Positions 1,786-44,422 of a DNA stretch of 45,680 bases are shown here, piece by piece. The DNA comes from Acinetobacter phage vB_AbaM_AB4P2, in the sequence record OR544125.1, one strand, 5' to 3'. Below the pieces are notes generated by a model that was not told the origin of the DNA, ran no database searches, and saw nothing but the letters and a program-made list of their open reading frames with translations. The first letter of the stretch is position 1. Every line of letters begins with the position of its first letter. A program made the position numbers and the translations under genes.

Positions 1786-1907
1786 ATATCTACATCACTC
1801 ATGTTACGACTGGGAGATATCTACGTCAACATTAATAATAAATGTTGATAAATCCGCGTCACCACACTTGACCAATCTACACCGAGCGCATAGTATATCT
1901 ACATCAG
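1786..1907 (-). promoter_or_regulatory. Cluster of four minus-oriented copies of the recurring TGRYGTAGAT motif upstream of the PAPS-reductase gene.
   Basis: Reverse complements of atatctacatca (1786-1797), atatctacgtcaa (1817-1829), aatctacacc (1874-1883) and atatctacatca (1895-1906). Confidence 0.5.
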
Positions 1908-1926
1908 GCTTACCGGAGATATCACT

Positions 1927-2133
1927 ATGCGCAGCTATGCAGGATTCACACAGGAGGAAAAAGAGCAGGTTTATTCACTAGCGCGTGCTGGTGTGCCTGA
2001 TGATGTGATTTGCCGTCGGTATGACATAGACGAGGATTTCCTGCTGCGCGTTATTGATGATGTCTTCGTTAACCTGCAAGAGAAGCGCGGGTATAAAGGT
2101 ATCTGCTGCAAGAATGATTTCTTGAGAGGGTGA
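1927..2133 (+). CDS. Hypothetical 68-aa protein, possibly HTH-like.
   Basis: ORF with an ATG start in an intergenic position. No family recognised. Confidence 0.3.
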   Translation: MRSYAGFTQEEKEQVYSLARAGVPDDVICRRYDIDEDFLLRVIDDVFVNLQEKRGYKGICCKNDFLRG

Positions 2134-2482
2134 GTGATGATTATTGAAAAAACAAATGAATGCCACAGTCTGTATATAAATACAGAACTAGTAATAAATT
2201 TAAGGCAATGCGATGACTGGGTTCAGCTTGATAAAAAACAAGCCGCGCAGCTTATCGAAGTCCTGCAACGCTGGGTTAATGGTGAGGAGATTGAGTGATG
2301 AGCGTTTATTTTATTCATGCTGAAGCTGTACTGAATAATGGGTGAGTTGCTGAGAAGATAGGAAGAATCGCAATTGCTGATAGCGCCGTGACGGCGTTCC
2401 ATAAATTCTTCTCTGATGCCACGGTTGCCAAGCTACGAGAGCAAGGTATTGATGTTGTCATTGATAAACTGGAAAAGGTGGA

Positions 2483-2734
2483 GTGATGGCAGCTATGATT
2501 TTTTTTCTTATCGTTATGGTGTTCATTGCTTATATGCTTGTTAGGAACAACGCAGTTGCTGACGCGAGGATTGGGTTCATAAAATACTTCTATGAAGAAG
2601 ACCCTGATGGATACGCCTCTGGCAAGCGATTCCATGAATCGCTACCAAGCTACGATGAGATGATGTGGAAATTCTGGGTGTGGCCTCTGTCAAAATTCTA
2701 TCCGGCATACAGAAACCGAAATCGTAACAAGTGA
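2483..2734 (+). CDS. Small membrane protein (83 aa, N-terminal TM helix).
   Basis: Hydrophobic segment AAMIFFLIVMVFIAYMLV. RBS ggaaaaggtggag upstream. Confidence 0.4.
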   Translation: MMAAMIFFLIVMVFIAYMLVRNNAVADARIGFIKYFYEEDPDGYASGKRFHESLPSYDEMMWKFWVWPLSKFYPAYRNRNRNK

Positions 2735-2744
2735 CCATGCTATA

Positions 2745-2772
2745 ATCCCATCCAACGTGATGGGATTTTTTA
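2745..2772 (+). terminator. Rho-independent terminator just upstream of the portal gene.
   Basis: Hairpin atcccatc / gatgggat followed by tttttatt. Confidence 0.55.
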
Positions 2773-2782
2773 TTGGTGACAT

Positions 2783-4186
2783 ATGTCCAAAATTGATGCA
2801 TTAAACGCCTACATACGCGACCGCGTGGCGAATAATAACCGGGCGCTTCAGCAACAGCGGCTTTGCGCTGGCGGGAAGAATCTGGACCAGAAACGTGAGT
2901 TCATGTGGAAAGAACTGGGCTACCCGCAGGAAATTACCGCCGAGATGTTCCGCTATGCCTACGAGCGACACCCAGCCGCCGCCGCTGGCATCAACCGCAT
3001 TATTAATAAATGCTGGCAGAAATACCCAGAAGTGGTCGAAGATGGCGAGGATGACAAAAGCTCAACGTCGTGGGAACTATCCATCAACAATATGATGAAG
3101 CGTGCCTATCCGTTCATCAAGGAGGCTGACAAGCGCAACGCCATCAACCGTTACTCTGCTGTCATCCTGCAAATCCGCGATGGCAAGCAATGGAGTGAGC
3201 CTGTAGACATCACCAAAACCCGCCGCATTAAAGATAAATCCATCGTTCGCTTCATTCCAGTGTGGGAAGAACAACTCCGTGTCAGTGCATGGAATAATGA
3301 TGAAGCCAGCGAAGACTACGGAATGCCTGAGATGTACGAATATCAGGAAAGCGCCGTGGAAGACTTCGACAGTGACGGCAAACCTGAGCGTTCAGTACAG
3401 ATTCATCCTGACCGCATCATTATTCTGGCTGAGGGTAGTTTTGATGGCAGCATGTTCAGTGGCGTTCCGATGCTGCGCGCTGGCTACAACAGCCTTATCG
3501 ATATGGCTAAAGTTTCCGGTAGTTCTGCGGAAGGCTTCCTGAAGAACGCAAGCCGTCAACTGGCCGTTAACTACACGAAGGATAACGTAACGCCAGCAAG
3601 CCTAGCTCAGTCGATGGGAGTCGATATTGAAGAACTCACCGACATCATGAATGAGAATATCGAGGCGCTAAACTCAGGCATCGACGCCGCTATGTTCACA
3701 ATGGGTGCTGATGCTAAGGTTCTTGCTGTAACGCCAGCAGACCCGAAGCCAACGTGGGAAGTTGCAGCTAACCAGTTCGCTGCGTCAATGGCGCTCCCGT
3801 TTACCGTCATTTTTGGACAGCAGACCGGACGCCTTGCAAGCGATGAAGACAAGATGCAGGAGGCGATGACCGCCAAGCAGCGCCGAGAAACATGGGTTGA
3901 TTATGTCATCTCTATGTTCGTTGAGCGCATGATTCAGTTCGGCATTGTCGATAAAGCCCCGGCAAACGGATACAAGGTTAAGTGGGATGACCTGCTTGCC
4001 CCATCCGAACTGGATAAAGCGGAATTGCTGGCTAAACTCGCCACTGCCAACAAGTCTTTCTTTGACGCCGGTCAATCTGCGCTACTGACCGTCGATGAGG
4101 CTCGCGGCATGGTTGGTATGGAGCCGATTGAAGAACTTCAGATCGTCACTGAGGGCAATCCTGACGATGAAAATCAAAATCTTTAA
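2783..4186 (+). CDS. Portal protein (467 aa).
   Basis: It is the first large morphogenesis ORF downstream of terL, and its size is typical of siphovirus portals. No motif was checked. Confidence 0.6.
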
Positions 4187-5120
4187 GGTTAGCGCCAGAC
4201 TGGTTGGTCCGAAAATACCAACCAGTAAAACAGACCCTGTTGGAGCTAACAGGAGACTAAGCAAGGCAAACAAACAGATTGAGGCGCGATACAAGCGCCT
4301 TAAATCGTCAGCCATAGACTTATTCAGGTCAATTCCAGTTGCCGCGATTAACTCCATTGATACTTATGGTTACAGGTATGATTTTTCAGCAGCTCGGGCA
4401 GCTCAATTCAATGAGGCATTGCAGCAGCTAATTGATGAAATCCTGCTTGACGACACACAGCCGATGAATGCAGGTCAGTTCTGGATGTCAATTTATGTCT
4501 CTGACGCCTATTCAGCTGGTACTGTTGAGGCGCAACAGCAACTGGCAGCTATGTCTCCACTCTATGCTGAGCGTCGTTCAATTGCAGACATTATTTACTC
4601 GGAGCCATATTTGCAGCGCCTGTCTATTGCCAATGCCACCACTTACAGTGATTGGGTTGGCATTGGTGACGCGGCGCGCAATGATTTGTCTCAAGTGATC
4701 ATGAATGCTATCGCTGTTGGTTCTAATCCGAGAGATATTGAATCAGACATCATTAAGCGCGTTGGTGTAAGTGAATCGCGAGCAAAAAATATCGCCCAAA
4801 CCGAGCTTACAGGCATTTTACGTAAGTCGCAGTCTGACGAGGTTCAGGAATCAAAGATTATTTTGGGGTTGAATAGTGCGCTCTTTTGGGTGTCGGCATT
4901 ATTAAAAACTACCCGCGCCACGCACTCAGCCAGACACGCACGCGCTTTTAGCCCGGAGGACGTAGAGGAATTTTACTCAAAGGACGGGAATCGCTATCGC
5001 TGCCATTGTGCGCAAACACCATGCATGTTAGATGAAAATGGCAATGTAATCATGCTTGAGTCATCTCTTAATAAGATGGTGATGGCAAGAGAAAAATGGA
5101 AATCACAGCACGAGAAGTGA
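4167..5120 (+). CDS. Head morphogenesis / minor head protein (SPP1 gp7 / Mu F-like position).
   Basis: It follows the portal directly. The listed ORF starts at 4095. The ATG at 4167 (MKIKIFKV) avoids a long overlap with the portal gene. Confidence 0.45.
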
Positions 5121-5210
5121 TATAATCACAAGTGCAGCTAGACCGGCCAGTCGAAAAGGTGAACGTGACGCCCTGCTGCAATCTTCATCACGAACCTACA
5201 CGAGGTTATC

Positions 5211-6299
5211 ATGTCAAAAGAAAAGACATCACGCTTTGTTTCTGAAGTAATCCGTCGATATGGCAATCGTTATGATTATTCAAAGACTAATTACAAAAAC
5301 TCAAAAACTAAAGTCATCATTACCTGCCGCGAGCATGGTGATTTTATGCAATCACCATCAAATCATTTAGCTGGTAATGGATGTCCGGCGTGTGCGTGCA
5401 TCAGAAGAGGCAACGCAAAAAGAAGCGATGCGGAATCGTTTATATTAAAAGCCAAAACAATCCATTCTAATACATACGAATACTCGAAAGTTAAATACAA
5501 AGATTGCGAATCAAAAGTTGTAATAGTTTGCCGAAGGCATGGTGAATTTGAACAAAGACCATCAGATCACTTACATGGTCAGGGATGCCCTAGCTGCGGA
5601 CTCATAAAGAGAGCAAGGTCTTATTCTCTTGGTAATGATCTGTTTATTGAGAAATCAAAGAGCATTCATGGTGACAGATATGATTACTCACTCGTTAAGT
5701 ATGAAGCAAACAATAAAGAAGTAATGATACTTTGCGAAATTCATGGGGTTTTCTTGCAAAAACCATCAGTGCATCTCATTGGATGTGGATGTCCGTACTG
5801 CGGTAAGAGCAAGCAAGTAAAATCACAAACTGATAGCGAGGCTGATTTTGCTAGAAAATCAAGGGCGGTCCATGGAGATAAATACATTTATGATAAATGC
5901 GGCTACAAGAACTCCCTCACCAACGTGTCAATAACATGCCCCATACATGGCGTATTCGTACAGCGAGCATCGCATCATATACAAGGATCTGGATGTCCAT
6001 CATGTGCTGTAACAGGATTTGATAAGAATAAGAAATCGTATGTTTACTTCCTAATGAGCGAGAAAGGAATAAAAGTTGGGATAACCAATAAAATAAAGCA
6101 ACGCATTATGCAACTAAGAAGCAGTACGCCATTTGAGTTTGAGGTGATTAAGTACGTAAAACTTTCAGGCGTTGATGCAATATCAATGGAGAACGATTAT
6201 CACAATAGATATGAGTCCGCTGGACTTAGTGGGTTCAATGGATGCACCGAATGGCTTAAGTATTCACCAGAATTAATGAATGAAATAATGAATAATTAG
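5211..6299 (+). CDS. T5orf172 / MUG113 (GIY-YIG-like) domain protein with four N-terminal tandem zinc-ribbon repeats. Putative free-standing homing-type endonuclease.
   Basis: Four repeats of about 65 aa follow the pattern F..K...H...Y.YSK..Y.....K..I.C..HG.F.Q.PS.HL.G.GCP.C. The C-terminus YVYFLMSEKGIKVGITNKIKQRIMQLRSS...NGCTEWLKY matches the T5orf172 pattern ending in EW(F/L). Confidence 0.6.
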   Translation: MSKEKTSRFVSEVIRRYGNRYDYSKTNYKNSKTKVIITCREHGDFMQSPSNHLAGNGCPACACIRRGNAKRSDAESFILKAKTIHSNTYEYSKVKYKDCESKVVIVCRRHGEFEQRPSDHLHGQGCPSCGLIKRARSYSLGNDLFIEKSKSIHGDRYDYSLVKYEANNKEVMILCEIHGVFLQKPSVHLIGCGCPYCGKSKQVKSQTDSEADFARKSRAVHGDKYIYDKCGYKNSLTNVSITCPIHGVFVQRASHHIQGSGCPSCAVTGFDKNKKSYVYFLMSEKGIKVGITNKIKQRIMQLRSSTPFEFEVIKYVKLSGVDAISMENDYHNRYESAGLSGFNGCTEWLKYSPELMNEIMNN

Positions 6300-6417: not shown

Positions 6418-6603
6418 TTAATCATACAGTTTTACGCCGGGAATCTTGCCTGCTGCGATGGCTGACTTTGAATGTAGAGACTCAGATGTCATGGCAGATA
6501 CATGCTTTGAGTAAAGTCCATCAAAATTATCAAGAGCCTCTATGTCCCTCTCTGCATGCAAATTGTTGCTGCCAGTCATTTGATATACTCCACAATCTCG
6601 CAT
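6418..6603 (-). CDS. Hypothetical small protein (61 aa; the likely start gives MTGSNNLH...).
   Basis: Minus-strand ORF downstream of a minus-oriented motif copy at 6769-6780. No family recognised. Confidence 0.2.
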   Translation of the reverse strand: MRDCGVYQMTGSNNLHAERDIEALDNFDGLYSKHVSAMTSESLHSKSAIAAGKIPGVKLYD

Positions 6604-6751
6604 TCACGCATCTGCACCAGGCCAAATGGCGCAACCACTTTTCCGCACGGGCGGATTTTGATTTGCTCAAGGTTGAACACTCCGCAGCGTCCGTTTTCTT
6701 TGAATTTGACCATTACCATGATTTCTTCCTCACTCATCATTTGATGTAGAT
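6587..6751 (-). CDS. Hypothetical Cys-containing small protein (54 aa, MMSEEEIMVMVKFKENGRCG...).
   Basis: Minus-strand ORF starting about 18 bp below the ttgacgtagatt motif. It has four Cys. It is speculative. Confidence 0.2.
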
Positions 6752-6799
6752 ACTATGCACCACCACTCAATCTACGTCAATACCCGTTGTGATAGAATT
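6741..6799. promoter_or_regulatory. Divergent promoter-like region carrying three motif copies: two plus-oriented toward 6825 and one minus-oriented toward the 6587-6751 ORF.
   Basis: ttgatgtagata (6741-6752, +), ttgacgtagatt as a reverse complement (6769-6780, -), and tgtgatagaatt (6788-6799, +). Confidence 0.45.
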
Positions 6800-6824
6800 A
6801 ATTATTGTTTGAACAGGAGGCAGA

Positions 6825-8265: not shown

Positions 8266-8280
8266 TGGGGCTTTGCTGTT
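8253..8280. terminator. Bidirectional terminator between the lysis operon (+) and the minus-strand accessory island.
   Basis: Hairpin aagcccc / ggggctt with T-runs on both strands. Confidence 0.6.
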
Positions 8281-8545
8281 AATCAATAACCATCCAGTCA
8301 TTTGCAATCATATCGGTTTGGCTTGCTAACCATGGTACCAGTTTCCCGTCAGCCGTTTTCATGCAGATGAACGGCAACGTATTAAGCCCATCAACCCCAT
8401 CAATATCGCACTCAAAATCCCATGCCCCTCCTGCTATCATAAACAGGAACATGCCCTTTCCATTCCACCCGCTCCTTGCGACCTTGCATCCAATTTCCAT
8501 CTCCTTCAAGGCATCACCAAATCTTAAAGACATTTTACACCTCAC
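8279..8545 (-). CDS. DUF2829 / Tad2-like small protein (88 aa). Candidate anti-Thoeris signal sponge.
   Basis: FGDALKEM...CKVARSGWNGKGMFLFM and the C-terminal WLASQTDMIANDWMV match my recollection of the DUF2829 pattern (FGEALEALK.GKKVAREGWNGKGMF ... W.ASQ.DILADDW). I could not run an HMM. Confidence 0.45.
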   Translation of the reverse strand: MRCKMSLRFGDALKEMEIGCKVARSGWNGKGMFLFMIAGGAWDFECDIDGVDGLNTLPFICMKTADGKLVPWLASQTDMIANDWMVID

Positions 8546-8659
8546 TCGTATAGTGGCTTCATCTCATAGCCAAACATGACTGCATTATGGTGCTCAACGC
8601 TACCAGCAAACACCAGATAGCGGCGACCACGATTATCCGTAACGATGTAGGCAGACGGC

Positions 8660-8968
8660 TCACTCTGCTGTTGATGTTGCTGGTTCATCAGCTGGTTCCT
8701 CGGTCATAACTTCAACGATGCGCACCAGTGAACACTCAAGATTCGGCGCATTGTAATTACCAGCCAAAAACAGAACGCTACCCGTGCTAATCAGCACCTG
8801 TTTTGCGTTTGCCTGTGACAGGTTCTGCACGATGAATTGCGCTGTTTCGGTGCCGATTTTCAGCACTGCGCTACCGTCGCTGTTCAGTGATACCAGTTGC
8901 GCGGATGTGTCAGCAATATTGGTAAAGTTCGCGTTTTGTTGCGCGATTGTGATGTCGCAGAATGACAT
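8660..8968 (-). CDS. Hypothetical protein (102 aa).
   Basis: ORF in a co-oriented minus-strand operon. Its stop overlaps the next start. Confidence 0.4.
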   Translation of the reverse strand: MSFCDITIAQQNANFTNIADTSAQLVSLNSDGSAVLKIGTETAQFIVQNLSQANAKQVLISTGSVLFLAGNYNAPNLECSLVRIVEVMTEEPADEPATSTAE

Positions 8969-9459
8969 TATTTAATCTCTCCGTTCAGTTCATTAACAAT
9001 TAACGTTGCATAGCCAGCAATATCCTTCCAGCTATCATCATAGGTCGGGTCGCCATTCAGCACGCGCCCAATCTTATGCTGAATCATGTCGAGCGCCTCA
9101 CGTTGGCTTGGCGTCAGATTGTGCCATCCATCAACCTTGCGCATCACATCTTTCAACTCCTGCATGATTTCAGCGCCATCTTTGAATTTACCGTATCGGA
9201 TACCGCGCTCGGTGATGAGCTGCTCTGTTGTGTCAGCTTCCGGTGCGCCAATGCAATCGTTGAGGTCTTGCTCGTCGGTAATTGGCTCGCGGTATGCAAT
9301 AACAACATCCCCGCAACCCTCAATCACTTCAATGCGACCAGCATAATCCATGCTTAGATAGAAAATCTCACCAGTACTTCCTGACTTAACTACAAGATAA
9401 GCCGTGTCATGGCCAGCAAAATCATCCTCATAACCTTTCAGATATTTCCATTTTTTCAT
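8968..9459 (-). CDS. Hypothetical protein with a C-terminal DUF6378-like domain.
   Basis: The C-terminal ...DDSWKDIAGYATLIVNEL and the preceding helical segment resemble phage DUF6378 proteins (...DSW.DIAGYA...), from memory. Confidence 0.4.
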   Translation of the reverse strand: MKKWKYLKGYEDDFAGHDTAYLVVKSGSTGEIFYLSMDYAGRIEVIEGCGDVVIAYREPITDEQDLNDCIGAPEADTTEQLITERGIRYGKFKDGAEIMQELKDVMRKVDGWHNLTPSQREALDMIQHKIGRVLNGDPTYDDSWKDIAGYATLIVNELNGEIK

Positions 9460-9650: not shown

Positions 9651-9677
9651 ATTTACTACTCCTTTTCGAAATTTATT

Positions 9678-9732
9678 ATTGACGAATCTACGTCACTTAG
9701 TCAATACTGTTGGTGTAGAATGATTCTACCAC
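9678..9732. promoter_or_regulatory. Divergent promoter region carrying motif copies for both directions, including a near-palindromic head-to-head pair.
   Basis: aatctacgtca (9685-9695, minus-oriented), tggtgtagaatg (9711-9722, +) and attctaccac (9723-9732). Together the last two form the palindrome gtgtagaat-g-attctaccac. Confidence 0.45.
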
Positions 9733-9747
9733 AACGGAAAAGGTGAT

Positions 9748-10206: not shown

Positions 10207-10454
10207 GCGCACCACATATGCCGATGATGAATGACAACGGGTTGCTGGAGTGCCCATTCTGCGGCTGTAATGAGGTTGGTATTGCTGTCGATGAGGATGG
10301 GTGGGAGTACATTGAGTGCGGTGATTGCTATTGCCGTACAGACGCATTCCGTAACAGAGAACTAATGACCAAGTCATGGAACACAAGAGTTGGTCACCTC
10401 TACACCGCAGACGACTTCAATAAGGCAGCAGAGGAGCGCGATTATGGATTATAA
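10203..10454 (+). CDS. Lar-family (restriction alleviation) small zinc-ribbon protein.
   Basis: LLECPFCGCNEVGIAVDEDGWEYIECGDCYCRTDAF...SWNTR matches the Lar_restr_allev pattern (CPFCG ... C..C ... WN.R). RBS ggagtgg is 9 nt upstream of the ATG at 10203. Confidence 0.55.
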   Translation: MSAPHMPMMNDNGLLECPFCGCNEVGIAVDEDGWEYIECGDCYCRTDAFRNRELMTKSWNTRVGHLYTADDFNKAAEERDYGL

Positions 10455-10938
10455 GTCACAAATCATGCGCGTGATTGTCAATCATCCAGGAGCAACTCGC
10501 GCATACATTGAGAAGCATTGCGGCGGTAAGCATTCAAGCACCACAACGCATCGTCTGCATGAGATGCTCGCGCTTGGCTTCATTCGCCGAGAGAGGTCAG
10601 TGATTCGTGGTGGTAAGTGGCAGTATAAATATTTTATCTCTGATGATGCCGCCGGTATTGATGATGCGATTAAGTGCCATTTGCTTGATAACGAAGGCGC
10701 GGAAGTGAAAGAAATCAGTTCATCCACTGGCTTGGATTACCGAATCGTGAAAAGCCGCATCCGCATTATGTTTCATAACGGAGATGTAACGCGAAGCTAT
10801 GACCACCACAAGAAACTGTGGCGTTATTCATGGCGTGAACAGGAAGTTAACGTCGGCAACCTGTTTAATTCACTTCTTCGCAGCGCAAGAGGTAAGCATG
10901 GGGAAAACCAAACGCAAGAAACAGGCAGTAGATTATGA
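10444..10938 (+). CDS. Tandem winged-helix DNA-binding protein. Putative transcription regulator.
   Basis: Two wHTH-like repeats: IMRVIVNHPGATRAYIEKHCGG...LHEMLALGFIRRE and LLDNEGAEVKEISSSTGLDYRIVKSRIRIMFHNGDV. RBS ggaggagcg precedes the ATG at 10444. Confidence 0.45.
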   Translation: MDYKSQIMRVIVNHPGATRAYIEKHCGGKHSSTTTHRLHEMLALGFIRRERSVIRGGKWQYKYFISDDAAGIDDAIKCHLLDNEGAEVKEISSSTGLDYRIVKSRIRIMFHNGDVTRSYDHHKKLWRYSWREQEVNVGNLFNSLLRSARGKHGENQTQETGSRL

Positions 10939-12047: not shown

Positions 12048-12241
12048 CACCGTATATCTTTTGTTCATCATGGGCTGCTATCATTTAATCAGGAGGTAGC
12101 CCATGAACATAATTCCTATCACTTACTTTCTCACGCTATACGCACTCACCAATTCGCCATTATTTGCACTGGCTACCGCCTCATGGTGCTATATCTCCCT
12201 GTGTTATAATTCGACCACAAACTAACCGTGGAGAGTTAACC

Positions 12242-16182: not shown

Positions 16183-16677
16183 TCATAAACGTTCACTTTT
16201 TACTCCGTGATTCTCGTGATACCCAGTTGAAGTTTCAGCTTTTTCTCTAGCGGATATTGCATCTTCTTTATTGGCAAAAAAACCAATATGCATCTTTGAT
16301 ACATAAGCCCTCCATAACCCACTCTTCCTGTCAAAGCTAACACCAGTTCTTCCTGATTTGTTATTTTTCTGCCTGCTAAGATTTCTATGGTTCTCTATAT
16401 GGCTCACCAGCCTTAAGTTTTCAATGCGGTTATCATCACGAATATGGTTAATGTGATCAATTTGCATCCCGTCAGGGATTGGTCCATTAAACATCTCCCA
16501 TATGATTCTGTGAGCCAAGAATTTTTTGTAATCAACGCATATGATTACATATCCTGTATTTGCAATTGTCCCAGCTAAAGAGCCACTTAGCATTTTTCTT
16601 TTTTGGTGCTTCCACCTAAGAACCCCATTATCATAATGAAAAATATCACCCCAATTTATTTTAGTTGTGCTCATCAC
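16183..16677 (-). CDS. HNH (HNH_3) plus AP2-domain homing endonuclease.
   Basis: IDHINHIRDDNRIENLRLVSHIENHRN is the HNH_3 motif. SGRTGVSFDRKSGLWRAYV is an AP2 DNA-binding domain. Confidence 0.8.
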   Translation of the reverse strand: MMSTTKINWGDIFHYDNGVLRWKHQKRKMLSGSLAGTIANTGYVIICVDYKKFLAHRIIWEMFNGPIPDGMQIDHINHIRDDNRIENLRLVSHIENHRNLSRQKNNKSGRTGVSFDRKSGLWRAYVSKMHIGFFANKEDAISAREKAETSTGYHENHGVKSERL

Positions 16678-17483
16678 ATCTTCTCCAGAATTGCCATAAC
16701 CTCGTGAATATCAGCGACAGGAATCTGAATAAACTCCTCATCTTCTGCCACTACATGACCAGCAGGTAGAATCACGTGGTCTGCTTGCTTCAACAGCTCA
16801 ATCAGGCGGTCTACTGGCTTAATCTTTTTCGACTTCAGCACTTTGGCTGTAACCTTGTCTTTGCCTTGTGCTTTGGCCTCTTCGACTGCCTCGTCGATAA
16901 CTTTTACTGCATCCTCACCATGCTCACGAGTTACCGCTACGGCATTTGCATAGCTAATTTGCCCGGCACTGATTCGCGCTTTCACCTCCGCTGGCACATC
17001 ACCCAGTGACAGGTGCATTTGCACGTCAGATACTGAGCGACCTACCTTCTTGGCGATTTCTTCATTCGTCCAGCCAAAGCCTTTCAGTCGCGTGTAGGCC
17101 TTTGCGCGTTCAAACGGGTCAAGTTGCTTACCCTGACTGGATGACACCATGAAGGCGATTTTGTCCGCCTCGTCGCCAGTGAAATCCTTACATTCAATGC
17201 GAACGATTGGTGCGCCACGTTCAATTGCACGCAGTGCGCCGAGATAGCGATGCTGACCGTCAAGAATGCGGATTCCCTTCTCGTCTGGAATAACTGTTAA
17301 TGCTGGTAATGGCTGGCCTGATTCCCAGCATTGCGCGAAATATTCGACATGCTGCTCATCTGCTTCACGGATGTTGTATCCCGGCTCCAGATAGATTTGC
17401 TCCACTGGCACGAGATAGGTTTTGTTAACAGCGATGCCGTTTCGCGTTTCTTTGTCTGAATAGATTTTGCTTAGTGTCTTCAT
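16674..17483 (-). CDS. DGQHR-domain protein (ParB/Srx-fold, DndB/DpdB-like).
   Basis: GIRILDGQHRYLGALRA contains the exact DGQHR signature. It has a ParB N-domain-like context and a charged, helical C-terminal half. Confidence 0.7.
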   Translation of the reverse strand: MKTLSKIYSDKETRNGIAVNKTYLVPVEQIYLEPGYNIREADEQHVEYFAQCWESGQPLPALTVIPDEKGIRILDGQHRYLGALRAIERGAPIVRIECKDFTGDEADKIAFMVSSSQGKQLDPFERAKAYTRLKGFGWTNEEIAKKVGRSVSDVQMHLSLGDVPAEVKARISAGQISYANAVAVTREHGEDAVKVIDEAVEEAKAQGKDKVTAKVLKSKKIKPVDRLIELLKQADHVILPAGHVVAEDEEFIQIPVADIHEVMAILEKM

Positions 17484-17851: not shown

Positions 17852-17900
17852 TTTCTACGTCACTAACTATAAACGCCGCACCAATCTACGTCAACAGGAA
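17852..17900. promoter_or_regulatory. Divergent promoter region. Two minus-oriented motif copies sit beside the shared string CGTCAACAGGAA, which precedes a plus-strand gene.
   Basis: tttctacgtca (17852-17862) and aatctacgtcaacaggaa (17883-17900). The same cgtcaacaggaa string recurs at 38949-38960 and as a reverse complement at 42391-42403. Confidence 0.45.
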
Positions 17901-17940
17901 TATGCTAAAATCATGCTAATCAAACAACAGGAGATTTAAA

Positions 17941-20585: not shown

Positions 20586-20960
20586 ATGAACATGCTTGAG
20601 CTGGTTGATGCGTACCTTCAGGATGCTGGATTGTATGATGGCTGGACTTCGCAGTTGCAGTTCTGGAACGACACCGGAGATGGTAGTGAGCAATTTATTG
20701 TCCTGCAATCCAACGGCGGCACGCAGGTGATGGATGGACTTGGTGGTGACTTCTATTTCTCGCTGTACGTTGTCGGCAAACATGGGCAGTATAACGTGGC
20801 TGATGTTGATGCGAAGGCCAATGAGATTATCGAATACATCAAGACGCATCCGATTGACTCATGCGTTAACTACATTCAGTTGCAAGCGCCACTCGGAAGG
20901 CCGATGCTGACGGAAGAAAAAAGACCAGTGCATGAGTTGCTTTTGCGGGTCGTGAAATAA
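20586..20960 (+). CDS. Putative tail terminator / minor tail component (about 124 aa).
   Basis: Positional inference. The listed ORF starts at 20544 and the ATG at 20586 (MNMLELV) is used here. A terminator follows. Confidence 0.35.
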   Translation: MNMLELVDAYLQDAGLYDGWTSQLQFWNDTGDGSEQFIVLQSNGGTQVMDGLGGDFYFSLYVVGKHGQYNVADVDAKANEIIEYIKTHPIDSCVNYIQLQAPLGRPMLTEEKRPVHELLLRVVK

Positions 20961-20963
20961 ATA

Positions 20964-20990
20964 AAGCCGCACTTGGCGGCCTTATTACTG
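20964..20990. terminator. Weak bidirectional terminator.
   Basis: GC stem gccgc / gcggc followed by cttattactggttt. Confidence 0.4.
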
Positions 20991-21014
20991 GTTTAAGCAT
21001 TGCCAGCGTGCTCT

Positions 21015-21080
21015 CTTAACATCCAGCCCCGTAACCCATACATACCCCTACATATGATTGCGATAATGCTGGATGTTAAG
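21015..21080. repeat. 13-bp perfect inverted repeat separated by a 40-nt loop, inside a 567-bp non-coding gap.
   Basis: cttaacatccagc (21015-21027) pairs with gctggatgttaag (21068-21080). Further hairpins lie at about 21100-21135 and at 21170-21204 (cttgccg / cggcaag). Confidence 0.6.
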
Positions 21081-21467
21081 TGTTGTGGCTCTGGTGCCTC
21101 CAGATTGCTGGTCGGTAAATCCAGCAGGCAATCCCAAAACAAATGGAGTGTTTCTTTACCTTGCCGCGTGCGCATAGCCGCATTACCACAACGGCAAGAG
21201 CACTGCGCGGCACCTTTCACCAAATCCGCGAGGTCTACGGGTTCAATGCTCTTTCCTGTTATGTTCCCTGATTTATTAATCACACCTCAGGGACGCAGTG
21301 CGCCGAATTTGTTTACAAGGAATCGGAAGACCTTGCTGACTTACAGGCTATTACGCCGCCATCAGAACAACATCATCGTTTGCATTTATCTTTGTGGTCA
21401 GTTTCTAAAAAGTCCGCAAAGTCGCTCACGAAAACTATCTGAAATACAATCTACACCACAAAATAAT

Positions 21468-21498
21468 CACTGTCAACACCTGTGATATAATCACCACG
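21468..21498 (+). promoter_or_regulatory. Extended -10 sigma70-type promoter for the major tail gene. It shares its sequence with the promoter at 23215-23245.
   Basis: tgtcaacacc followed by TGaTATAAT (TG at 21483-21484, hexamer 21486-21491). The ATG is at 21528. Confidence 0.55.
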
Positions 21499-23191: not shown

Positions 23192-23240
23192 AATCTACAT
23201 CACCACCTCGCAGGTGTCAACACCACTGAGATGATATAAT
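23192..23240. promoter_or_regulatory. Divergent promoter region: a minus-oriented motif copy and a plus-strand extended -10 promoter.
   Basis: aatctacatca (23192-23202, reverse complement tgatgtagatt) lies 36 bp upstream of the Imm start. tgtcaacacc...TGaTATAAT (hexamer 23235-23240) lies upstream of 23261. Confidence 0.5.
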
Positions 23241-26346: not shown

Positions 26347-31062
<4,716 letters not shown>

Positions 31063-31101
31063 TACAATATACATCAAATCCACAAAGGAGCATTTATTAT
31101 A

Positions 31102-34602: not shown

Positions 34603-34610
34603 CTCACTAA

Positions 34611-35757: not shown

Positions 35758-35778
35758 AATCTACATCAATCTACATCG
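35758..35778 (-). promoter_or_regulatory. Two overlapping tandem minus-oriented motif copies, forming an internal promoter inside the replication operon.
   Basis: aatctacatcaatctacatcg. Its reverse complement is cgatgtagattgatgtagatt. Confidence 0.45.
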
Positions 35779-38112: not shown

Positions 38113-38120
38113 TTCATCAC

Positions 38121-38894
38121 CTATGGCATGTCAGGCCAATAAGAGTTGCTTTTAGATCTGTTTTCACTTGGTGCAAGTAATTGCAAGTTATGCCAGCAGT
38201 GAAGGCCGCAAACCAATTTACTATTTATTGGCACTATGTGATCAACTTGCATGCCAAGAACGCCAGCCATCTCATAAACCTTTTCAATTAAAACCCTTTC
38301 ATGTTCAAACCATGATGGTATCGCCCGTCTTTTAAGATACTTATATTTACGCTGATGATATCTAACAACACCCTTGTTTTTCTGTCTCCACTGTTTTGAC
38401 TTCTCGTTGTGCTTTTCCTTGTTTTCATTGTAATACTTCTTTGATTTTGCGTTTATCTTGTTCTTATTTGCTGCGTAATTACCTTTCTTGAACTCTGATT
38501 GGCACTTCTTACATTCAGGCCTAAGACCATCAAGTGATGATTTGTTTTTATTGAAGTTTTCTTCATTTGCATCAAGAACTGAGTTGCATTTAGAGCATAC
38601 TTTCCTTCCATCAACAAGATATCTAAGCCTTTTACCTTTGTTTCCATCGCATGATTTACAATGAGATTTTAAACCAAGCCTCATCTTCTTATCTGAGTAG
38701 AAGTAATCACTTGTTGCAGGAAGCATTAAATTGCATCTTGAGCATTTCTTTTTTGTCCCTGTGCTTGCGCAACCTGCACTTTCCTGAGCAACATTTTGCT
38801 TTTGCAGTTCCGATAAACTCATTTCCGCAAACCTCGCACTTCTTAACGGTGATAGCCATTTCTTATCCTCTATTGTAACGATTAACTGTTTCAT
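38121..38894 (-). CDS. HNH endonuclease with N-terminal tandem CxxC zinc-ribbon repeats.
   Basis: The C-terminal VDHIVPINSKLVCGLHCWHNLQLLAPSENRSK is an HNH motif. N-terminal CSRCN, CKSCD, CSKCN and CKKCQ form Zn-ribbons. Confidence 0.8.
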   Translation of the reverse strand: MKQLIVTIEDKKWLSPLRSARFAEMSLSELQKQNVAQESAGCASTGTKKKCSRCNLMLPATSDYFYSDKKMRLGLKSHCKSCDGNKGKRLRYLVDGRKVCSKCNSVLDANEENFNKNKSSLDGLRPECKKCQSEFKKGNYAANKNKINAKSKKYYNENKEKHNEKSKQWRQKNKGVVRYHQRKYKYLKRRAIPSWFEHERVLIEKVYEMAGVLGMQVDHIVPINSKLVCGLHCWHNLQLLAPSENRSKSNSYWPDMP

Positions 38895-38936
38895 TGCAAG
38901 TAACGATTGATTGTTTCATGTGAGTAAATTACAATG

Positions 38937-38960
38937 ATTCTACATCATCGTCAACAGGAA
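38937..38960 (-). promoter_or_regulatory. Minus-oriented motif copy for the HNH/helicase operon, overlapping the plus-strand string cgtcaacaggaag upstream of the primase gene.
   Basis: attctacatcatcgtcaacaggaag. Its reverse complement is ...ttgacgatgatgtagaat. Confidence 0.45.
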
Positions 38961-40021: not shown

Positions 40022-40219
40022 TCAAACATCATCATAACACCAATATGCAACGCGAATTATTTCAACCAAATCATTTGATGATAAAAATTTATTACCATCA
40101 TAAATTGCGTGAATTCTTTCACCATCAACAGTTAATGCCAAAACATTTCTTCCTATTTGCGGCCTCCACAGATAGCAATCAAACCATTCAACATCACACC
40201 AATCATCTTCTGGAATCAT
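40022..40219 (-). CDS. Hypothetical Trp-rich small protein (65 aa).
   Basis: ORF co-oriented with the replication operon, overlapping the upstream stop. Confidence 0.35.
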   Translation of the reverse strand: MIPEDDWCDVEWFDCYLWRPQIGRNVLALTVDGERIHAIYDGNKFLSSNDLVEIIRVAYWCYDDV

Positions 40220-41772
40220 TTCAACCTCGGATTTATATGAACAGTGTTTCCGATAAATACGCAGTAACCATCCTCTTCCAGAGATGGCAATACGCTTGAC
40301 CTGAGTCGGTCATAAATCTTAGGTATTCCTTTGAATGGCCTGACATTTTTAAGTGAATCATAAAGCCACTTCACCGTTACGTTTGTTTTCCCTTTCTGAG
40401 CGGCAGAGCGTAGCTTTTCTGCAACAACATCAAATTCAGAACGCTCACCAGCATATCCATTTGATTCAACAGCATCAGTGAACGTTTTTGTCAGTGCATC
40501 ATAAACACTGATGGCGCGACTAATTTCATTTTCACCGATAATCTTTGAACGCTTCCCTCCATCGCACCAATTTTCAGCAGCGTGAAATATTGCTGCCAGA
40601 CGGATTATTTGCTTATCAGCTTTACCCATCGCACCACGAAGAAGGACGTGATCCCACTTACCGCCTGGAAGGAAGTTTTTCTCCCACTGATTTCGTAACA
40701 GGCCAATCATTCTTGCTGAATCGTTGTGAAGCGTAAGTCTTGTTTTTTCTGCTGACACAACATTATGTATAAATCTTGCATATTCCGACCTCAAGCTGTC
40801 TGGCATTGGCTTGCTTACAGGGCAGTCATTAACCATGTCCCAGTGTTCGCGATAGCCAAGCATTGATTGCTCTCGCAACATCAGGAAACGTTCAGAAAGA
40901 CCGTTACCCCTGTCGCCAGCGGCAAGAATGGCATCAATACTTTCATCCTGCGCAATCACACTTATGTTTCCAAGCACGTAACCAGATGAAACGCCACGAC
41001 CAACACGAGCAGAGCCAATGAATCCGCCATCCCATCCCTTCAGGATGACTTCAGCGTTTGCCTTTCCACCTTCCTTTCCGTAAGAGAGGCCAAGACATGT
41101 GTTAAGAACGCTGGCCTCGTCACTTATCAGATTAAAGAAACCACCTTCATGGATTGCCTGATGCTGGACAGCCTCTGGAGTTGCGTCAGTAAGTGGATAT
41201 GTAATCGTATAAAGTTCTTCCAGCTTCTCCTTTTCCCGAGCAATATCGTCTCCGATTAGTGCCTTTGCATTTTGGTTGCTTGCCTCTTTGTATGCCTTCA
41301 TCAGTTCTTCAATGCGAAGATTTATTTTTATGATCTGCTTTTCCATCTTTTTGGAAAGGTTGTCATATTCAATCTTCACCGGATTCATGTGCATTGAGTT
41401 GATAGCGGTTTTCCCTGCTGATGGAGGCTGAGAAGTAACCACGTAAAGAGAAACTGGAAGTTCTGAATGGTAATACTCAACGCTAAAGTTTCTCGTCATT
41501 GCGCTGGCAACGCACCCAAGTAAATGCATGAACGATGTATTTATTGGGAACTGAACGGCGCGAGCAGCTGCGATTGCATAACGAGACAGTAAATCAGTCC
41601 TGTGCTCACTGGTCAGTTCTGTTTCGGAGTACGTTACATCGCGCTCCTTACCTTCCTTGATGTCAAGCCACATATTTGAGCTTGGTGTCATGCCATGATG
41701 GAATGCGACGCGAGCCGGAGATACTTTTAATTCCCTTGCTTCATTGAAGATGTCTTGCGCTGTGATCATCAT
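40216..41772 (-). CDS. P-loop replication protein (DUF3987/VirE-like). Putative origin-associated helicase or primase partner.
   Basis: Walker A QPPSAGKTAI at about residue 115. Size and position next to the primase and origin are typical of phage replication initiators. The family assignment is tentative. Confidence 0.4.
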   Translation of the reverse strand: MMITAQDIFNEARELKVSPARVAFHHGMTPSSNMWLDIKEGKERDVTYSETELTSEHRTDLLSRYAIAAARAVQFPINTSFMHLLGCVASAMTRNFSVEYYHSELPVSLYVVTSQPPSAGKTAINSMHMNPVKIEYDNLSKKMEKQIIKINLRIEELMKAYKEASNQNAKALIGDDIAREKEKLEELYTITYPLTDATPEAVQHQAIHEGGFFNLISDEASVLNTCLGLSYGKEGGKANAEVILKGWDGGFIGSARVGRGVSSGYVLGNISVIAQDESIDAILAAGDRGNGLSERFLMLREQSMLGYREHWDMVNDCPVSKPMPDSLRSEYARFIHNVVSAEKTRLTLHNDSARMIGLLRNQWEKNFLPGGKWDHVLLRGAMGKADKQIIRLAAIFHAAENWCDGGKRSKIIGENEISRAISVYDALTKTFTDAVESNGYAGERSEFDVVAEKLRSAAQKGKTNVTVKWLYDSLKNVRPFKGIPKIYDRLRSSVLPSLEEDGYCVFIGNTVHINPRLK

Positions 41773-42008
41773 GAAATCCTTTTTACGTAAACCATATCTT
41801 TGTCAGGGTATCCAACCTTTGTTGAGAATTTCATGCCTTCATTCCTTCGCATGAAATAGTTTAATGCGTTCCTCAGGCTTGTAATGCCTCCAAACCTCTT
41901 CGAGTCAATCATCACAGTCTCCCCTACTGAAACCACAGATAACCCAGAAAGAGCTGCATTCTTTTTGCCGTACTTATCAAGTTTCACAAAATCCTCCACC
42001 AGCAACAA
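41769..42008 (-). CDS. Hypothetical protein (79 aa), first gene of the minus-strand replication operon.
   Basis: ORF immediately downstream (minus sense) of the iteron region. Confidence 0.35.
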   Translation of the reverse strand: MLLVEDFVKLDKYGKKNAALSGLSVVSVGETVMIDSKRFGGITSLRNALNYFMRRNEGMKFSTKVGYPDKDMVYVKRIS

Positions 42009-42063
42009 ATTATGATTGAATCATACCATAAGTATTGAATCATGCAACATCAAATACGACTCG

Positions 42064-42370
42064 CGTGGGTAACGTGGGGTAAGCGTGGGGAACATCACCT
42101 TCCCCACGAGGTTTCACTCTAAGTATATGTAATATAATATAATTATTATTATTTGGGTTAATGGGTAATATTATTATTCATATTATAGATAGTAATTAAC
42201 ATAATATTAACAAATGGATTATTTAAATATATTTATAAGGGGATGGGTTCGAAATCTGCCCCTTTTTACCCACGAAAAATAAAAACATTCAAATCAATAA
42301 TTTACGATGAAAAACGTGGGGCAACATACCTGCCCCACGACCTGCCCCACGGGCAAAAATTTACCCCACG
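42064..42370. other. Putative origin of replication: seven copies of the 7-mer CGTGGGG/CCCCACG, plus two one-base-off variants (CGTGGGT and CCCACG), in both orientations flank a 120-bp AT-rich block (over 85 percent AT).
   Basis: cgtgggt 42064, cgtgggg 42073 and 42084, ccccacg 42102. The AT-rich block is 42121-42240. cccacg 42269, cgtgggg 42315, ccccacg 42333, 42345 and 42364. This includes a tandem 12-mer acctgccccacg x2 at 42328-42351 and a hairpin with a T-run at 42241-42268. Confidence 0.55.
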
Positions 42371-42390
42371 GCACGTTTTTAACGCTTTCC

Positions 42391-42424
42391 TGTTGACGTA
42401 GAATCATCGTTGATGTAGATTGAA
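42391..42424 (+). promoter_or_regulatory. Early promoter with sigma70-like geometry, built from two motif copies.
   Basis: ttcctgTTGACGtagaatcatcgttgatgTAGATTgaact. TTGACG, then 17 bp, then TAGATT. The ATG at 42452 is 27 bp downstream, with RBS gagggtgaag. Confidence 0.55.
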
Positions 42425-43511: not shown

Positions 43512-43568
43512 CTACCCGTTCATATTAATTATCAGTGCGCTCTATGTGGCGCACGCTTTAGTGGAGAC

Positions 43569-43682
43569 ATGTCAATGAATAACCACAAAAGACGCCGATA
43601 CACCACTGGCGCTAAAATATTCCTTGCTGTTTATGTGCTGGCACTGGTAGCAGCTATAGAAGGAGTGGTGCATTATGTTTAA
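43569..43682 (+). CDS. Small membrane protein (37 aa).
   Basis: MSMNNHKRRRYTTGAKIFLAVYVLALVAAIEGVVHYV. Its stop overlaps the next ATG. Confidence 0.3.
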   Translation: MSMNNHKRRRYTTGAKIFLAVYVLALVAAIEGVVHYV

Positions 43683-43995
43683 TCAATTAGCTGAGTTTTA
43701 TGAAGCATATTCCGACTGGATTGATGCTGGCGCACCAGAAGGTGAGCCATTTAGTCGTCGAGGCGGGCTTTGTGGTTCTGTTTTCCTATACGCAGCAATG
43801 AATGGATACCAAGTAAGTGAGAGGTCGGCGCTCCTGATGGTGATGCGAGTGCAGTTTGTTAAAGCTGGCCTTGACCGGAACTATCCGTTCAACAATAAGG
43901 ATAATCCATATGATGAGGAATCTATCAATGGAACAATTCACACCAACAAGAATCGCGTAGCATGGGTTAAAAGGGAGTGGCAGCATTATGTTTAA
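43675..43995 (+). CDS. Early hypothetical protein (106 aa).
   Basis: ORF with an overlapping start. No family recognised. Confidence 0.4.
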   Translation: MFNQLAEFYEAYSDWIDAGAPEGEPFSRRGGLCGSVFLYAAMNGYQVSERSALLMVMRVQFVKAGLDRNYPFNNKDNPYDEESINGTIHTNKNRVAWVKREWQHYV

Positions 43996-44137
43996 CGATA
44001 TTAGTGACGCAATGCAAAACATGTGGGAACGCTACTGGGATAGCATGAAGACGTGTCACTACATGATGGTACAGATAGGTAATTACATTGAGGTTGTGCC
44101 AGATAACGGCGTGCATGACATTAAGTGCATGTGTTAA
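43988..44137 (+). CDS. Early small Cys/His-containing protein (49 aa).
   Basis: ATG overlaps the upstream stop. MFNDISDAMQNMWERYWDSMKTCHYMM... Confidence 0.3.
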   Translation: MFNDISDAMQNMWERYWDSMKTCHYMMVQIGNYIEVVPDNGVHDIKCMC

Positions 44138-44153
44138 ACGAGGGATTATGCTA

Positions 44154-44327
44154 ATGCAAACGACTAAGCAAAAAGTTTGGCAACTCGCCAAACAACACGA
44201 ACTGGACGATTTCATCGCGAAGGTAGCAAAGACATTCCCTGATGCGCTTGAGATCGTTCATGTGCAGACGCGAACAGAAAATGCGTGGTGCTATGCTGGC
44301 AAGCGCAATAACGATGGTGTACAATAA
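44154..44327 (+). CDS. Early small protein (57 aa), last gene before the terminator.
   Basis: RBS gaggga lies 9 nt upstream. A terminator follows. Confidence 0.3.
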   Translation: MQTTKQKVWQLAKQHELDDFIAKVAKTFPDALEIVHVQTRTENAWCYAGKRNNDGVQ

Positions 44328-44371
44328 ACGCATAACCACTATTGCCTTCACTCATATCATCACCCAACCTT

Positions 44372-44398
44372 TAACCCGCTTGTGCGGGTTCTTTTTTG
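44372..44398 (+). terminator. Rho-independent terminator separating the early cluster from the packaging genes.
   Basis: aacccgcttgtgcgggttcttttttg. Confidence 0.7.
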
Positions 44399-44410
44399 CC
44401 ATTAACGCTA

Positions 44411-44422
44411 TGGTGTAGAATC
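44411..44422 (+). promoter_or_regulatory. Motif copy (tggtgtagaatc) upstream of terS. The identical variant precedes gene 9748.
   Basis: Plus-oriented motif 53 bp upstream of the terS ATG. Confidence 0.45.

Follow-up and report, generated by a model that had tools for sequence, protein, structure and literature searches.

An intergenic 11-mer as the probable core of a clade-specific promoter class in Acinetobacter phage vB_AbaM_AB4P2 and its relatives

Extended -10 sigma70 promoters carry the sequence TGnTATAAT, which also has a doubled TGTGn form, and a second TG at -17/-16 has been reported to boost them. The early promoter families of T5 and T7 are clade-specific conserved promoter motifs of phages that use the host polymerase. 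The element described here is an intergenic 11-mer, TGRYGTAGAWT, that is repeated along the genome of Acinetobacter phage vB_AbaM_AB4P2 (record OR544125.1). The stretch analyzed is 45,680 nucleotides in length and is referred to below as the window. The motif is real and, judged from its placement and partner sequences, promoter-associated. It is, in our estimate, probably the core of a clade-specific promoter class read by host sigma70 RNA polymerase.

Extended -10 promoters have reportedly been treated by Burr et al. in 2000 and by Mitchell et al. in 2003, both in Nucleic Acids Research (NAR). The motif resembles them in having a conserved element directly upstream of the -10 hexamer and in the many copies that lack a usable -35. 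Its T-17/G-16 corresponds to the second TG, and two variants in the window (6788 and 9723) are true TGTGn forms. It differs from them in lacking a TG at -15/-14 (the bases here are R-15 Y-14 G-13), in the invariant G at the third base of the hexamer, and in that the same unit doubles as a -35. An earlier note on this DNA had described the TGRYG part as unlike the canonical extended -10 spacing, which is correct, as the TG is at -17/-16 and not at -15/-14.

In the Kagunavirus phages Golestan and fBC-Eco01, a 20-mer, TAATAGnnTACTATTCAyTT, was detected with PHIRE (PMC7203180 Table S4; PMC9825357). It is present at approximately seven sites, which end 21-37 bp before co-directional start codons. 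As in the window motif, a -10-like hexamer is immediately preceded by a stretch specific to the clade; the 20-mer has no -35. The window motif shares with clade-specific promoter motifs in general that it is repeated, intergenic, co-oriented with genes, found with copies that end 20-40 bp before start codons, and limited to one phage clade. Unlike the 20-mer, to which it is unrelated in sequence, it partners canonical -35 and -10 hexamers at 17 bp and coexists with a second promoter class. The window motif is absent from Golestan and Jersey. The Golestan/fBC-Eco01 motif was considered as a possible match and rejected; it is absent from the window and is a different motif of a different clade.

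Dispersed sites are also known from regulators. The operators of the P1 C1 repressor have an asymmetric 17-bp consensus and are found at many dispersed sites overlapping promoters. The 11-mer is likewise asymmetric, dispersed through the genome, and overlaps promoter hexamers, but this is a functional analogy only; the window phage is virulent, and promoter partners at fixed spacing explain most copies without a repressor. KorB of plasmid RK2 is a ParB-family global repressor with 12 operators, which are 13-bp palindromes. The window combines a gene for a predicted ParB/KorB-like helix-turn-helix (HTH) protein with a dispersed, promoter-proximal motif that is also present at that protein's own operon. 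This too would be a functional analogy only, and the KorB operators are palindromic whereas the window motif is asymmetric. In phi29, A2b/A3 with p4 form an early/late switch at divergent promoters, and Thermus phage P23-45 has extended -10 late promoters. The window is similar in its overlapping back-to-back promoters, putatively early on one side and late without a -35 on the other, with late genes apparently on extended -10 sequences. No description of the motif was found in the literature searched, and the GenBank record of Vi II-E1, which does annotate other repeats, leaves it out. The unit with its two registers and the clean division into two classes, both described below, are neat and useful, would not much surprise a specialist, and are no new kind of system.

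The window holds almost the whole genome, in circularly permuted form, of a virulent siphophage. The large terminase open reading frame (ORF) at 115-924 (+) contains only the C-terminal part of the protein, with Terminase_3 matched from profile position 133, and the window is read as a circular permutation that opens within the terminase gene. Identity is approximately 90% to Escherichia phage Bas78 and to Salmonella phages ST1UNAM, Vi II-E1 (Macdonaldcampvirus), Skate/seszw, and swi2. More distant phages with the same gene order are Salmonella CF-SP1 (Swiduovirus, 78%), Klebsiella ZX4 (74%), and Aeromonas pIS4-A (Roufvirus). Membership of the window phage in Guernseyvirinae proper was rejected; the gene order of Golestan and Jersey differs. 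The relatives that carry the motif, a fifth of which was examined later than the other four, belong to Macdonaldcampvirus, Skatevirus, Swiduovirus, Roufvirus, and one Klebsiella clade, at identities down to 74%; a genome-reduced laboratory mutant carries it too. A scan of viral contigs with 15-mers gave mostly chance matches on unrelated contigs, and relatives made up only about 30 loci.

Exact matches to TGRYGTAGAWT number 11 in the window against 0.22 expected, and matches with at most one mismatch number 28 against 5.6 expected; no shuffle reached either count. The GRYGTAGAW core is present 19 times, and the coordinates agree with those of the earlier note within 1-2 bp. Seventeen of these are within the intergenic fraction, which makes up 9-11% of the window (binomial P = 9e-15), and the intergenic enrichment that had been set as a test beforehand was thereby found. 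All copies had been described as intergenic, which is true of these 17; the 35768 copy straddles the 3' end of an ORF, and the only truly coding copy is 13222(-). The latter and its 40-bp flanks are conserved in every relative, most likely because it is the coding sequence that is conserved. Third copies had been placed at 6741-6799 and 9685-9732. Both exist, but as the variants TGTGATAGAAT (6788, +) and TGTGGTAGAAT (9723, -), which are canonical TGTGn extended -10 sequences. A longer string said to recur at three places can be written as the 17-mer ATCTACGTCAACAGGAA. It is exact at 17884 only, with one mismatch at 42387(-) and two mismatches at 38944 and 1819.

Eighteen copies were aligned and numbered with TAGAWT as the -10. 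The logo reads T-17 G-16 R-15 Y-14 G-13 T A G A W T(-7) S(-6), with sharp bounds and flat flanks. In an unbiased ranking of intergenic 8-mers, pieces of the motif were at the top in the window, Bas78, Vi II-E1, ZX4, and pIS4-A. They were not at the top in the same ranking of Golestan, which has its own motif, and of Jersey. Tandem copies are offset by 10, 17, 21, 22, 25, 31, and 56 bp. Helical phasing of the tandem copies was rejected, as these offsets share no single phase.

Intergenic copies have the start codon of a co-directional gene 20-130 bp downstream, with the exception of 21448(-), which faces an unannotated RNA gene. No copy overlaps a ribosome-binding site or start codon, and the implied leaders are at least 14 nucleotides long. 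The test of orientation is weak because most copies are in divergent regions, where either strand faces a gene. By our own reading of the map, approximately six copies truly discriminate (21448, 35758, 35768, 42394, 42411, and 44411), and six of six fit. An automated tally of copies in tandem context found a match for two of three in the window, the mismatch being 21448, and for 5 of 11 across five genomes. The claim that the strand of the motif matches the downstream gene is thus upheld for the six discriminating copies by map reading, with a distance of 20-130 bp and with no annotated target for 21448.

The full unit is a 12-mer, (T)TGAYG|TAGAWT, in which a -35-like hexamer directly abuts a -10-like hexamer, and it can be sorted into two putative registers. 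In register 1, TAGAWT would serve as the -10, with TGRYG filling -17 to -13. In register 2, the TTGACG half would serve as the -35 for a second -10 exactly 17 bp downstream. In the -10 register, a perfect TTGACA is present exactly 17 bp upstream at 21448 and 23192. The orthologous sites of ZX4, pIS4-A, and CF-SP1 keep TTGACA, a spacing of 17-18 bp, and TGRYGTAGATT, but otherwise differ in the spacer. In the six genomes compared, 12 of the 63 copies without TTGACG have a TTGACA match of at least 5/6 at 16-18 bp upstream, as opposed to 1 of 26 with the TTGACG flavour. In the -35 register, nAnnnT is present always exactly 17 bp downstream in 20 of the 26 unique TTGACG-flavour contexts of the six genomes, compared with a background of 19% and with 11 of 63 for the other flavours. 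The hexamers found 17 bp after TTGACG are TATAGT, CATAGT, TAACAT, GATGAT, or the TAGATT of a second motif, and the TATAGT of the 17883 locus is 100% conserved.

A 31-bp arrangement, TTGACGTAGATW-N11-TAnnnT-N3-TGAYGTAGAWA, is present at 17883/17852 and at 1818/1787, and the 17-bp and 31-bp arrangements swap for each other at orthologous loci. The two registers explain both kinds of pair. At 42394/42411, where the earlier note had compared two copies 17 bp apart to a -35/-10 pair, the sequence is indeed TTGACG-N17-TAGATT, and the upstream copy would be the -35 of the downstream copy. The TAGAAT/TAGATT noted within the motif is likewise a usable -10 hexamer, with TA at -12/-11 in all copies and T at -7 in 13 of the 18 aligned. 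Partner hexamers at canonical spacing are a signature of the sigma70 holoenzyme and are part of the basis for reading the motif as a host sigma70 promoter.

A second class of putative promoters, of the extended -10 type, is present in the same genome. TG(TG)nTAnAAT is found 25-87 bp upstream of portal, capsid, tail, fibre, and lysis genes; 13 of the 14 TGnTAnAAT matches read along the + strand, and the five genomes compared share the sites at orthologous positions. The count of 14 against 8.4 expected is not significant alone, and the evidence for this class is its placement, strand, and conservation. At 6769/6790 and 17883/17903, the reverse-complemented motif is at -36..-25 of the extended -10 promoter. 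Since the two classes overlap back-to-back in divergent regions, polymerase would occupy one at a time. The motif had been said to mark the boundaries of every antisense island, and eight of nine islands agree; the helicase island at 40022-41987 uses TTGCAT-N16-TGgTATGAT. It had further been called the key to the transcriptional architecture of the genome, which is an overstatement, as the second conserved class, TGnTAnAAT, appears to drive the structural and lysis blocks. On the sequence evidence, the motif is a mark of one of at least two promoter classes and not of the whole architecture.

The motif class heads the leftward islands, rightward small-gene clusters, and one small-RNA gene, whose functions look early or accessory. 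The leftward islands headed by it, with functions in anti-defence, immunity, recombination, and replication, carry PAPS-reductase-like, Tad2-like, HNH, ParB-like, superinfection-immunity, NinX, SSB, exonuclease, and helicase genes. From these gene functions, we infer early expression for the motif class and late expression for the extended -10 class. A strong terminator closes each island, and the terminators were the sole useful output of a generic promoter/terminator scan. The coordinates of both classes and of associated features are given in Table 1.

Table 1. Copies of the motif, extended -10 (class 2) sequences, and associated features in the window
Feature	Position	Strand	Sequence	Context
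Motif copy	1787..1797	-	TGATGTAGATA	20 bp upstream of PAPS-reductase-like gene 955-1767
Motif copy, putative -35 register	1818..1829	-	TTGACGTAGATA	TTGACG-N17-TAACAT
Motif copy	1874..1884	-	CGGTGTAGATT	Distal tandem copy
Motif copy	1896..1906	-	TGATGTAGATA	Distal tandem copy
Motif copy	6742..6752	+	TGATGTAGATA	Putative distal lysis-cassette promoter (cassette from 6825)
Motif copy	6769..6780	-	TTGACGTAGATT	TTGACG-N17-CATAGT; head of island 6418-6719
Variant, canonical TGTGn extended -10 (class 2)	6788..6798	+	TGTGATAGAAT	Putative proximal lysis promoter
Motif copy	9685..9695	-	TGACGTAGATT	Head of island 8279-9650, including Tad2-like gene
Motif copy	9711..9721	+	TGGTGTAGAAT	Head of rightward block from 9754 (Lar, winged HTH, small ORFs)
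Variant, canonical extended -10	9723..9733	-	TGTGGTAGAAT	Face-to-face with 9711 copy (GTAGAATgATTCTAC)
Motif copy	17852..17862	-	TGACGTAGAAA	3 nucleotides after TATAGT, at about -3..+8; no T at -7
Motif copy, putative -35 register	17883..17894	-	TTGACGTAGATT	TTGACG-N17-TATAGT; head of ParB-like island 15487-17824
Full putative promoter	21448..21476	-	TTGACA-N17-TAGATT	TGGTG at -17..-13; precedes tmRNA-like RNA
Full putative promoter	23192..23220	-	TTGACA-N17-TAGATT	TGATG at -17..-13; heads island 22275-23156 (Imm, NinX, DUF551)
Two motif copies 10 bp apart	35758..35778	-	CGATGTAGATTGATGTAGATT	Head of operon 33064-35726
Motif copy	38937..38947	-	TGATGTAGAAT	Head of helicase operon 35766-38894
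Two motif copies 17 bp apart	42393..42421	+	TTGACGTAGAAT-N5-TTGATGTAGATT	Heads rightward small-gene cluster from 42452
Motif copy	44411..44421	+	TGGTGTAGAAT	After terminator 44373-44390, before class 2 TGTTACAAT at 44423
Coding motif copy	13222-13232	-	CGATGTAGAAC	Antisense inside structural gene 12242-13654
Class 2	2738..2746	+	TGCTATAAT	Upstream of portal gene
Class 2	5118..5126	+	TGATATAAT	Upstream of 5211-6299
Class 2	12202..12210	+	(TG)TGTTATAAT	Upstream of capsid block from 12242
Class 2	17903..17911	+	TGCTAAAAT	Back-to-back with 17883 copy; upstream of block from 17942
Class 2	21483..21491	+	(TG)TGATATAAT	Upstream of major tail gene at 21528
Class 2	23232..23240	+	TGATATAAT	Upstream of tail operon at 23270
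Class 2	28481..28489	+	TGATAGAAT	Upstream of tail protein gene at 28576
Class 2	31060..31068	+	TGATACAAT	Upstream of tail fibre gene at 31102
Class 2	44423	+	TGTTACAAT	Upstream of block from 44475
Extended -10	42020..42030	-	taTGgTATGAT	TTGCAT 16 bp upstream; helicase island 40022-41987, sole island without the motif
Tandem winged HTH (MarR-like) protein	10444..10938	+		Sub-threshold Pfam MarR match
ParB/KorB-like HTH protein	16674..17483	-		ParB HTH domain and KorB domain (27 bits, cutoff 22.3)
Predicted unannotated transcript	20960..21441	-		Core about 21250-21436, downstream of 21448 promoter

The conservation of the motif exceeds what sigma70 is known to need. T-17, G-16, G-13, and the G of TAG are essentially invariant across 15-38 unique orthologous sequences per site, and the invariance of T-17, G-16, and G-13 holds even where the -35 is perfect. 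Motif-class promoters always have G as the third hexamer base, while in the extended -10 class this base can be T, A, G, or C and differs from one orthologue to another. The TTGACG-N17-TATAGT spacer at 17883 begins with six bases that are conserved to at least 90%, and the other eleven vary. This excess suggests an extra reader of the 11-mer besides sigma70. Overlapping tandem promoters could explain some of these points. The bases beyond the known need of sigma70 (T-17, G-16, G-13, and the hexamer G) would let a putative factor tell the motif class from the late class, and such a factor might shut off the motif class.

Several observations weigh against the motif being simply a sigma70 promoter core. 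Five of the 18 aligned copies, including 1787 and 17852, have A instead of T at -7, and an A at this position should disable a -10. These two copies are at approximately +1 of another promoter, a position typical of an operator. The 1787 copy begins 3 nucleotides after a -10-like TAACAT, at about -3 to +8 of that promoter, and has no T at -7; the 17852 copy is identical in all relatives examined. A strong -35 is present in only 3 of the 19 window copies (TTGACA twice and TTGACG once). Positions -35/-34 are enriched for T, and most copies have merely a weak TT-rich -35. A TG at -15/-14 usually compensates for a weak -35, and the motif has no such TG. The TAGATT half is conserved inside the spacer in copies that would act as a -35, and decaying upstream copies show the same A-to-G change (GTGGAT) at independent loci. 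A generic sigma70 scan found no excess of promoter-like sites over shuffled sequence (27 vs 32, 31 vs 34, and 19 vs 16), so it lends the sigma70 reading no independent support. Gene-less copies are present in relatives, at 611, 2701, and 2724 (-) of Bas78 and at 3828 (-) of pIS4-A. The sigma70 holoenzyme is an inferred reader, and all promoter assignments rest on sequence.

Two of the gene-less copies of Bas78 are orphans: the PAPS-reductase island is missing at their location, and they now face the terminase gene at its 3' end. The remaining copies (AGACGTAGATA and TGGCGTAGATA) are between a terminator and an extended -10 promoter, and the copy in the corresponding window slot, 44411, is oriented oppositely.

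The invariance beyond sigma70, the copies conserved at +1 without T at -7, the TAGATT conserved in spacers, and the reverse-complemented motif at -36..-25 of extended -10 promoters in divergent regions would all fit an operator. It is nevertheless unlikely that the 11-mer serves chiefly as an operator for a phage DNA-binding protein, for which the ParB/KorB-like protein at 16674-17483 would be the best candidate. Its sites would overlap the -35, -10, or +1 of early promoters, the protein would be a global repressor or an early-to-late switch, and the orientation of the motif would follow only from the site being built of promoter hexamers. The protein has Pfam ParB HTH and KorB domains, and no other DNA-binding candidate accompanies the motif in all of the genomes examined. 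Its identity is 98% in Bas78 and Vi II-E1, 86% in CF-SP1, 80% in ZX4 and pIS4-A, and 72% in two further motif-bearing genomes (L197 and L198). Its gene is retained in the smallest viable seszw mutant, and at the start of its operon are two motif copies, placed at -35 and approximately +1, 31 bp or three helical turns apart. This co-occurrence is non-discriminating, however, because no clade member without ParB was found, and the motif is lacking in phages whose ParB homologues are 46-48% identical. A covariation test of ParB specificity was uninformative, as homologues at 72-86% keep the motif and those at 46-48% have none. ParB and KorB sites are palindromic, whereas the motif is asymmetric and is found singly or at 10, 17, 21, 25, 31, and 56 bp with no fixed dimer geometry. 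Since early promoters must work before any phage protein exists, a promoter role would still be needed. A dual-purpose element, both promoter core and asymmetric operator of a phage global regulator (most plausibly the ParB/KorB-like protein), is a possibility that we rate as rather unlikely. If it were true, the regulator would occupy the copies at -35, -10, and +1 of every early promoter late in infection, and the overlapping late promoters would be freed or activated at 6769/6790, 17883/17903, 21448/21483, and 23192/23232. A KorB-like regulon would then run the temporal programme of a virulent siphophage. The earlier note had instead offered the tandem winged HTH (wHTH) protein at 10444-10938 as the regulator, and a role of the motif as its operator is highly improbable. 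With its two wHTH domains the protein could recognize a site that lacks symmetry, and its gene is in a motif-headed operon, but Bas78, with 17 motif copies, has no homologue even at E up to 10 and has an HNH gene in the slot. The gene is also absent from the viable 36-kb mutant seszw_290S (MZ375352), which keeps 14 motif copies. The wHTH protein is 35-37% identical in ZX4 and pIS4-A, and up to 51% when CF-SP1 is included, while the motif is unchanged. The motif is asymmetric, unlike the dyads usual for MarR dimers, and dyads are present only where divergent copies meet. The wHTH protein was also rejected as a second reader, its gene being dispensable and absent from some motif-bearing genomes. 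The mutant seszw_290S is a published, viable, genome-reduced phage (PMC9825161); its helicase, exonuclease, and recombination genes are behind motif copies, and its ParB-like gene is kept.

The copies could be duplicated promoter cassettes only, in moron-like promoter-gene-terminator units, with the extra bases inherited and homogenized by recombination and not selected. Vi II-E1 has an identical 36-bp cassette, TGACGTAGAATcatcatTGATGTAGTTTgaactcat, at 2228(-) and 42191(+), including the shared variant TAGTTT, which indicates that promoter cassettes are copied or homogenized within a genome. The islands are bounded by motif and terminator, their content varies among relatives, and the orphan copies of Bas78 are found where an island was lost. 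Such copying contributes, yet copying alone is quite unlikely as the full explanation and is insufficient for conservation across genomes only 74-78% identical, where orthologous sites keep the invariant positions while spacer and flanks diverge. The logo is at background outside -17..-6, so most copies are not recent duplicates, and among the extended -10 promoters of these genomes the third hexamer base does drift. The promoter could also belong to a polymerase redirected by a phage factor; this would be a sigma appropriator or a small sigma-like protein, and it would recognize a long element close to the -10. Models for this are the T4 late or middle promoters and the phiEco32 gp36 promoters. 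The motif is compact (approximately 16 bits over -17 to -6), most copies have no -35, and an unrelated clade of Enterobacteria siphophages, that of Kagunavirus Golestan and fBC-Eco01, has its own different motif in the same layout (PMC7203180, PMC9825357). Redirection is very doubtful all the same, as the TTGACA/TTGACG partners at exactly 17 bp are a sigma70 signature at several conserved sites, and the motif heads genes that are presumably expressed first, for anti-defence (Tad2-like, Lar) and replication. The Pfam scan covered 47 window proteins, with many small ORFs left without a family assignment. None of the 47 matched a sigma family above the cut-off, a scan that small divergent factors could escape; the lone sigma match was a sub-threshold one, in which the HTH of the ParB-like protein scored 19.7 bits against Sigma70_r4_2 (cut-off 25.7). 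If the motif acted in 5' leaders as an RNA processing site or a translational operator, a gene-locked orientation upstream of start codons would equally be expected. Such a role at the RNA level is barely credible and is in effect ruled out by the copies that cross in divergent regions of 104-106 bp (6720-6824 and 9651-9753), where no promoter could fit further upstream. Partners such as TTGACA and TATAGT at a distance of 17 bp are features of DNA, and no Rfam match was found.

The sigma70 promoter reading receives indirect support from the sequence downstream of the 21448 copy. No credible ORF is present downstream of 21448(-) for approximately 480 nucleotides. The first 190 nucleotides or so have 70-88% identity to unannotated intergenic DNA in 648 phage records of unrelated families, among them Ackermannviridae, Schitoviridae, Ounavirinae, and Chaseviridae, often inside tRNA clusters. 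This cross-family similarity begins 9-19 nucleotides after TAGATT, which is where a transcript from the putative promoter would start. The sequence contains a tag frame, GCA AAC GAU GAU GUU GUU CUG AUG GCG GCG UAA (ANDDVVLMAA*), in which other phage families differ by synonymous or conservative substitutions. After the tag frame come a pseudoknot and a hairpin, the loop of which, GUGUGAUUAAUAA, is conserved; compensatory changes are present in both, and 10 of the 27 predicted pairs covary. The Rfam families of transfer-messenger RNA (tmRNA) gave sub-threshold hits, here and in homologues, and ARAGORN called neither a tRNA nor a tmRNA downstream of 21448 and detected no tRNA-like domain there. 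The product is described here as tmRNA-like, with the motif copy as its predicted promoter. In ESh22 and Kpn16-P2 the element is among tRNA genes, and pIS4-A has two tRNAs in the same slot. In seszw_290S, the sequence after the 21448-type promoter is unlike the tmRNA-like RNA of the window; wild-type seszw was not compared there.

The clade includes Vi II-E1, Skate/seszw, swi2, BASEL phages Bas78-80, Klebsiella ZX4-like phages, and Roufvirus, with many candidates for therapy or biocontrol, and its genome records have essentially no regulatory annotation. The two-class map delimits transcription units, and on it every accessory island stands out as a cassette of its own, running from promoter to terminator. 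The map also exposed an RNA gene missed by ORF-based annotation, and for engineering it shows which short sequences to keep when genomes are reduced, as with seszw. In terms of mechanism, the motif would be a natural promoter element with invariant bases beyond the known reading of sigma70. The same genomes contain an internal control class, which makes the search for an extra reader straightforward.

Genes located behind motif copies include a PAPS-reductase-like gene at 955-1767(-), a Tad2-like anti-Thoeris gene at 8279-8533(-), and a Lar restriction alleviation gene at 10203-10454(+). Further genes behind copies are a superinfection-immunity gene at 22962-23156(-) and NinX at 22472-22825(-). 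Their identity fits a view of the islands as accessory, host-takeover cassettes. The operon at 33064-35726 contains genes for SSB, an AAA_24-domain protein, and an exonuclease. The block from 17942 is assigned to head-tail genes from its position in Bas78.

The putative promoter of the primase gene is TTGATT-N17-TACAAT, and its -10, TACAAT (38930-38935), is face-to-face with the 38937 copy. Face-to-face -10 hexamers, 1 bp apart on opposite strands, are present at two loci, 9716-9728 and 38930-38942 (TAGAATgATTCTA and TACAATgATTCTA). The predicted transcripts at both loci would overlap by approximately 12 nucleotides at their 5' ends.

A 460-bp intergenic region (41990-42390) contains GTGGGG/CCCCACG iterons, including the inverted pair CGTGGGGCAGGTATGTTGCCCCACG, which flank a very AT-rich core. 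It is located between the helicase operon and the strongest motif promoter, and the record of Vi II-E1 annotates the same repeat. This region is probably the replication origin.

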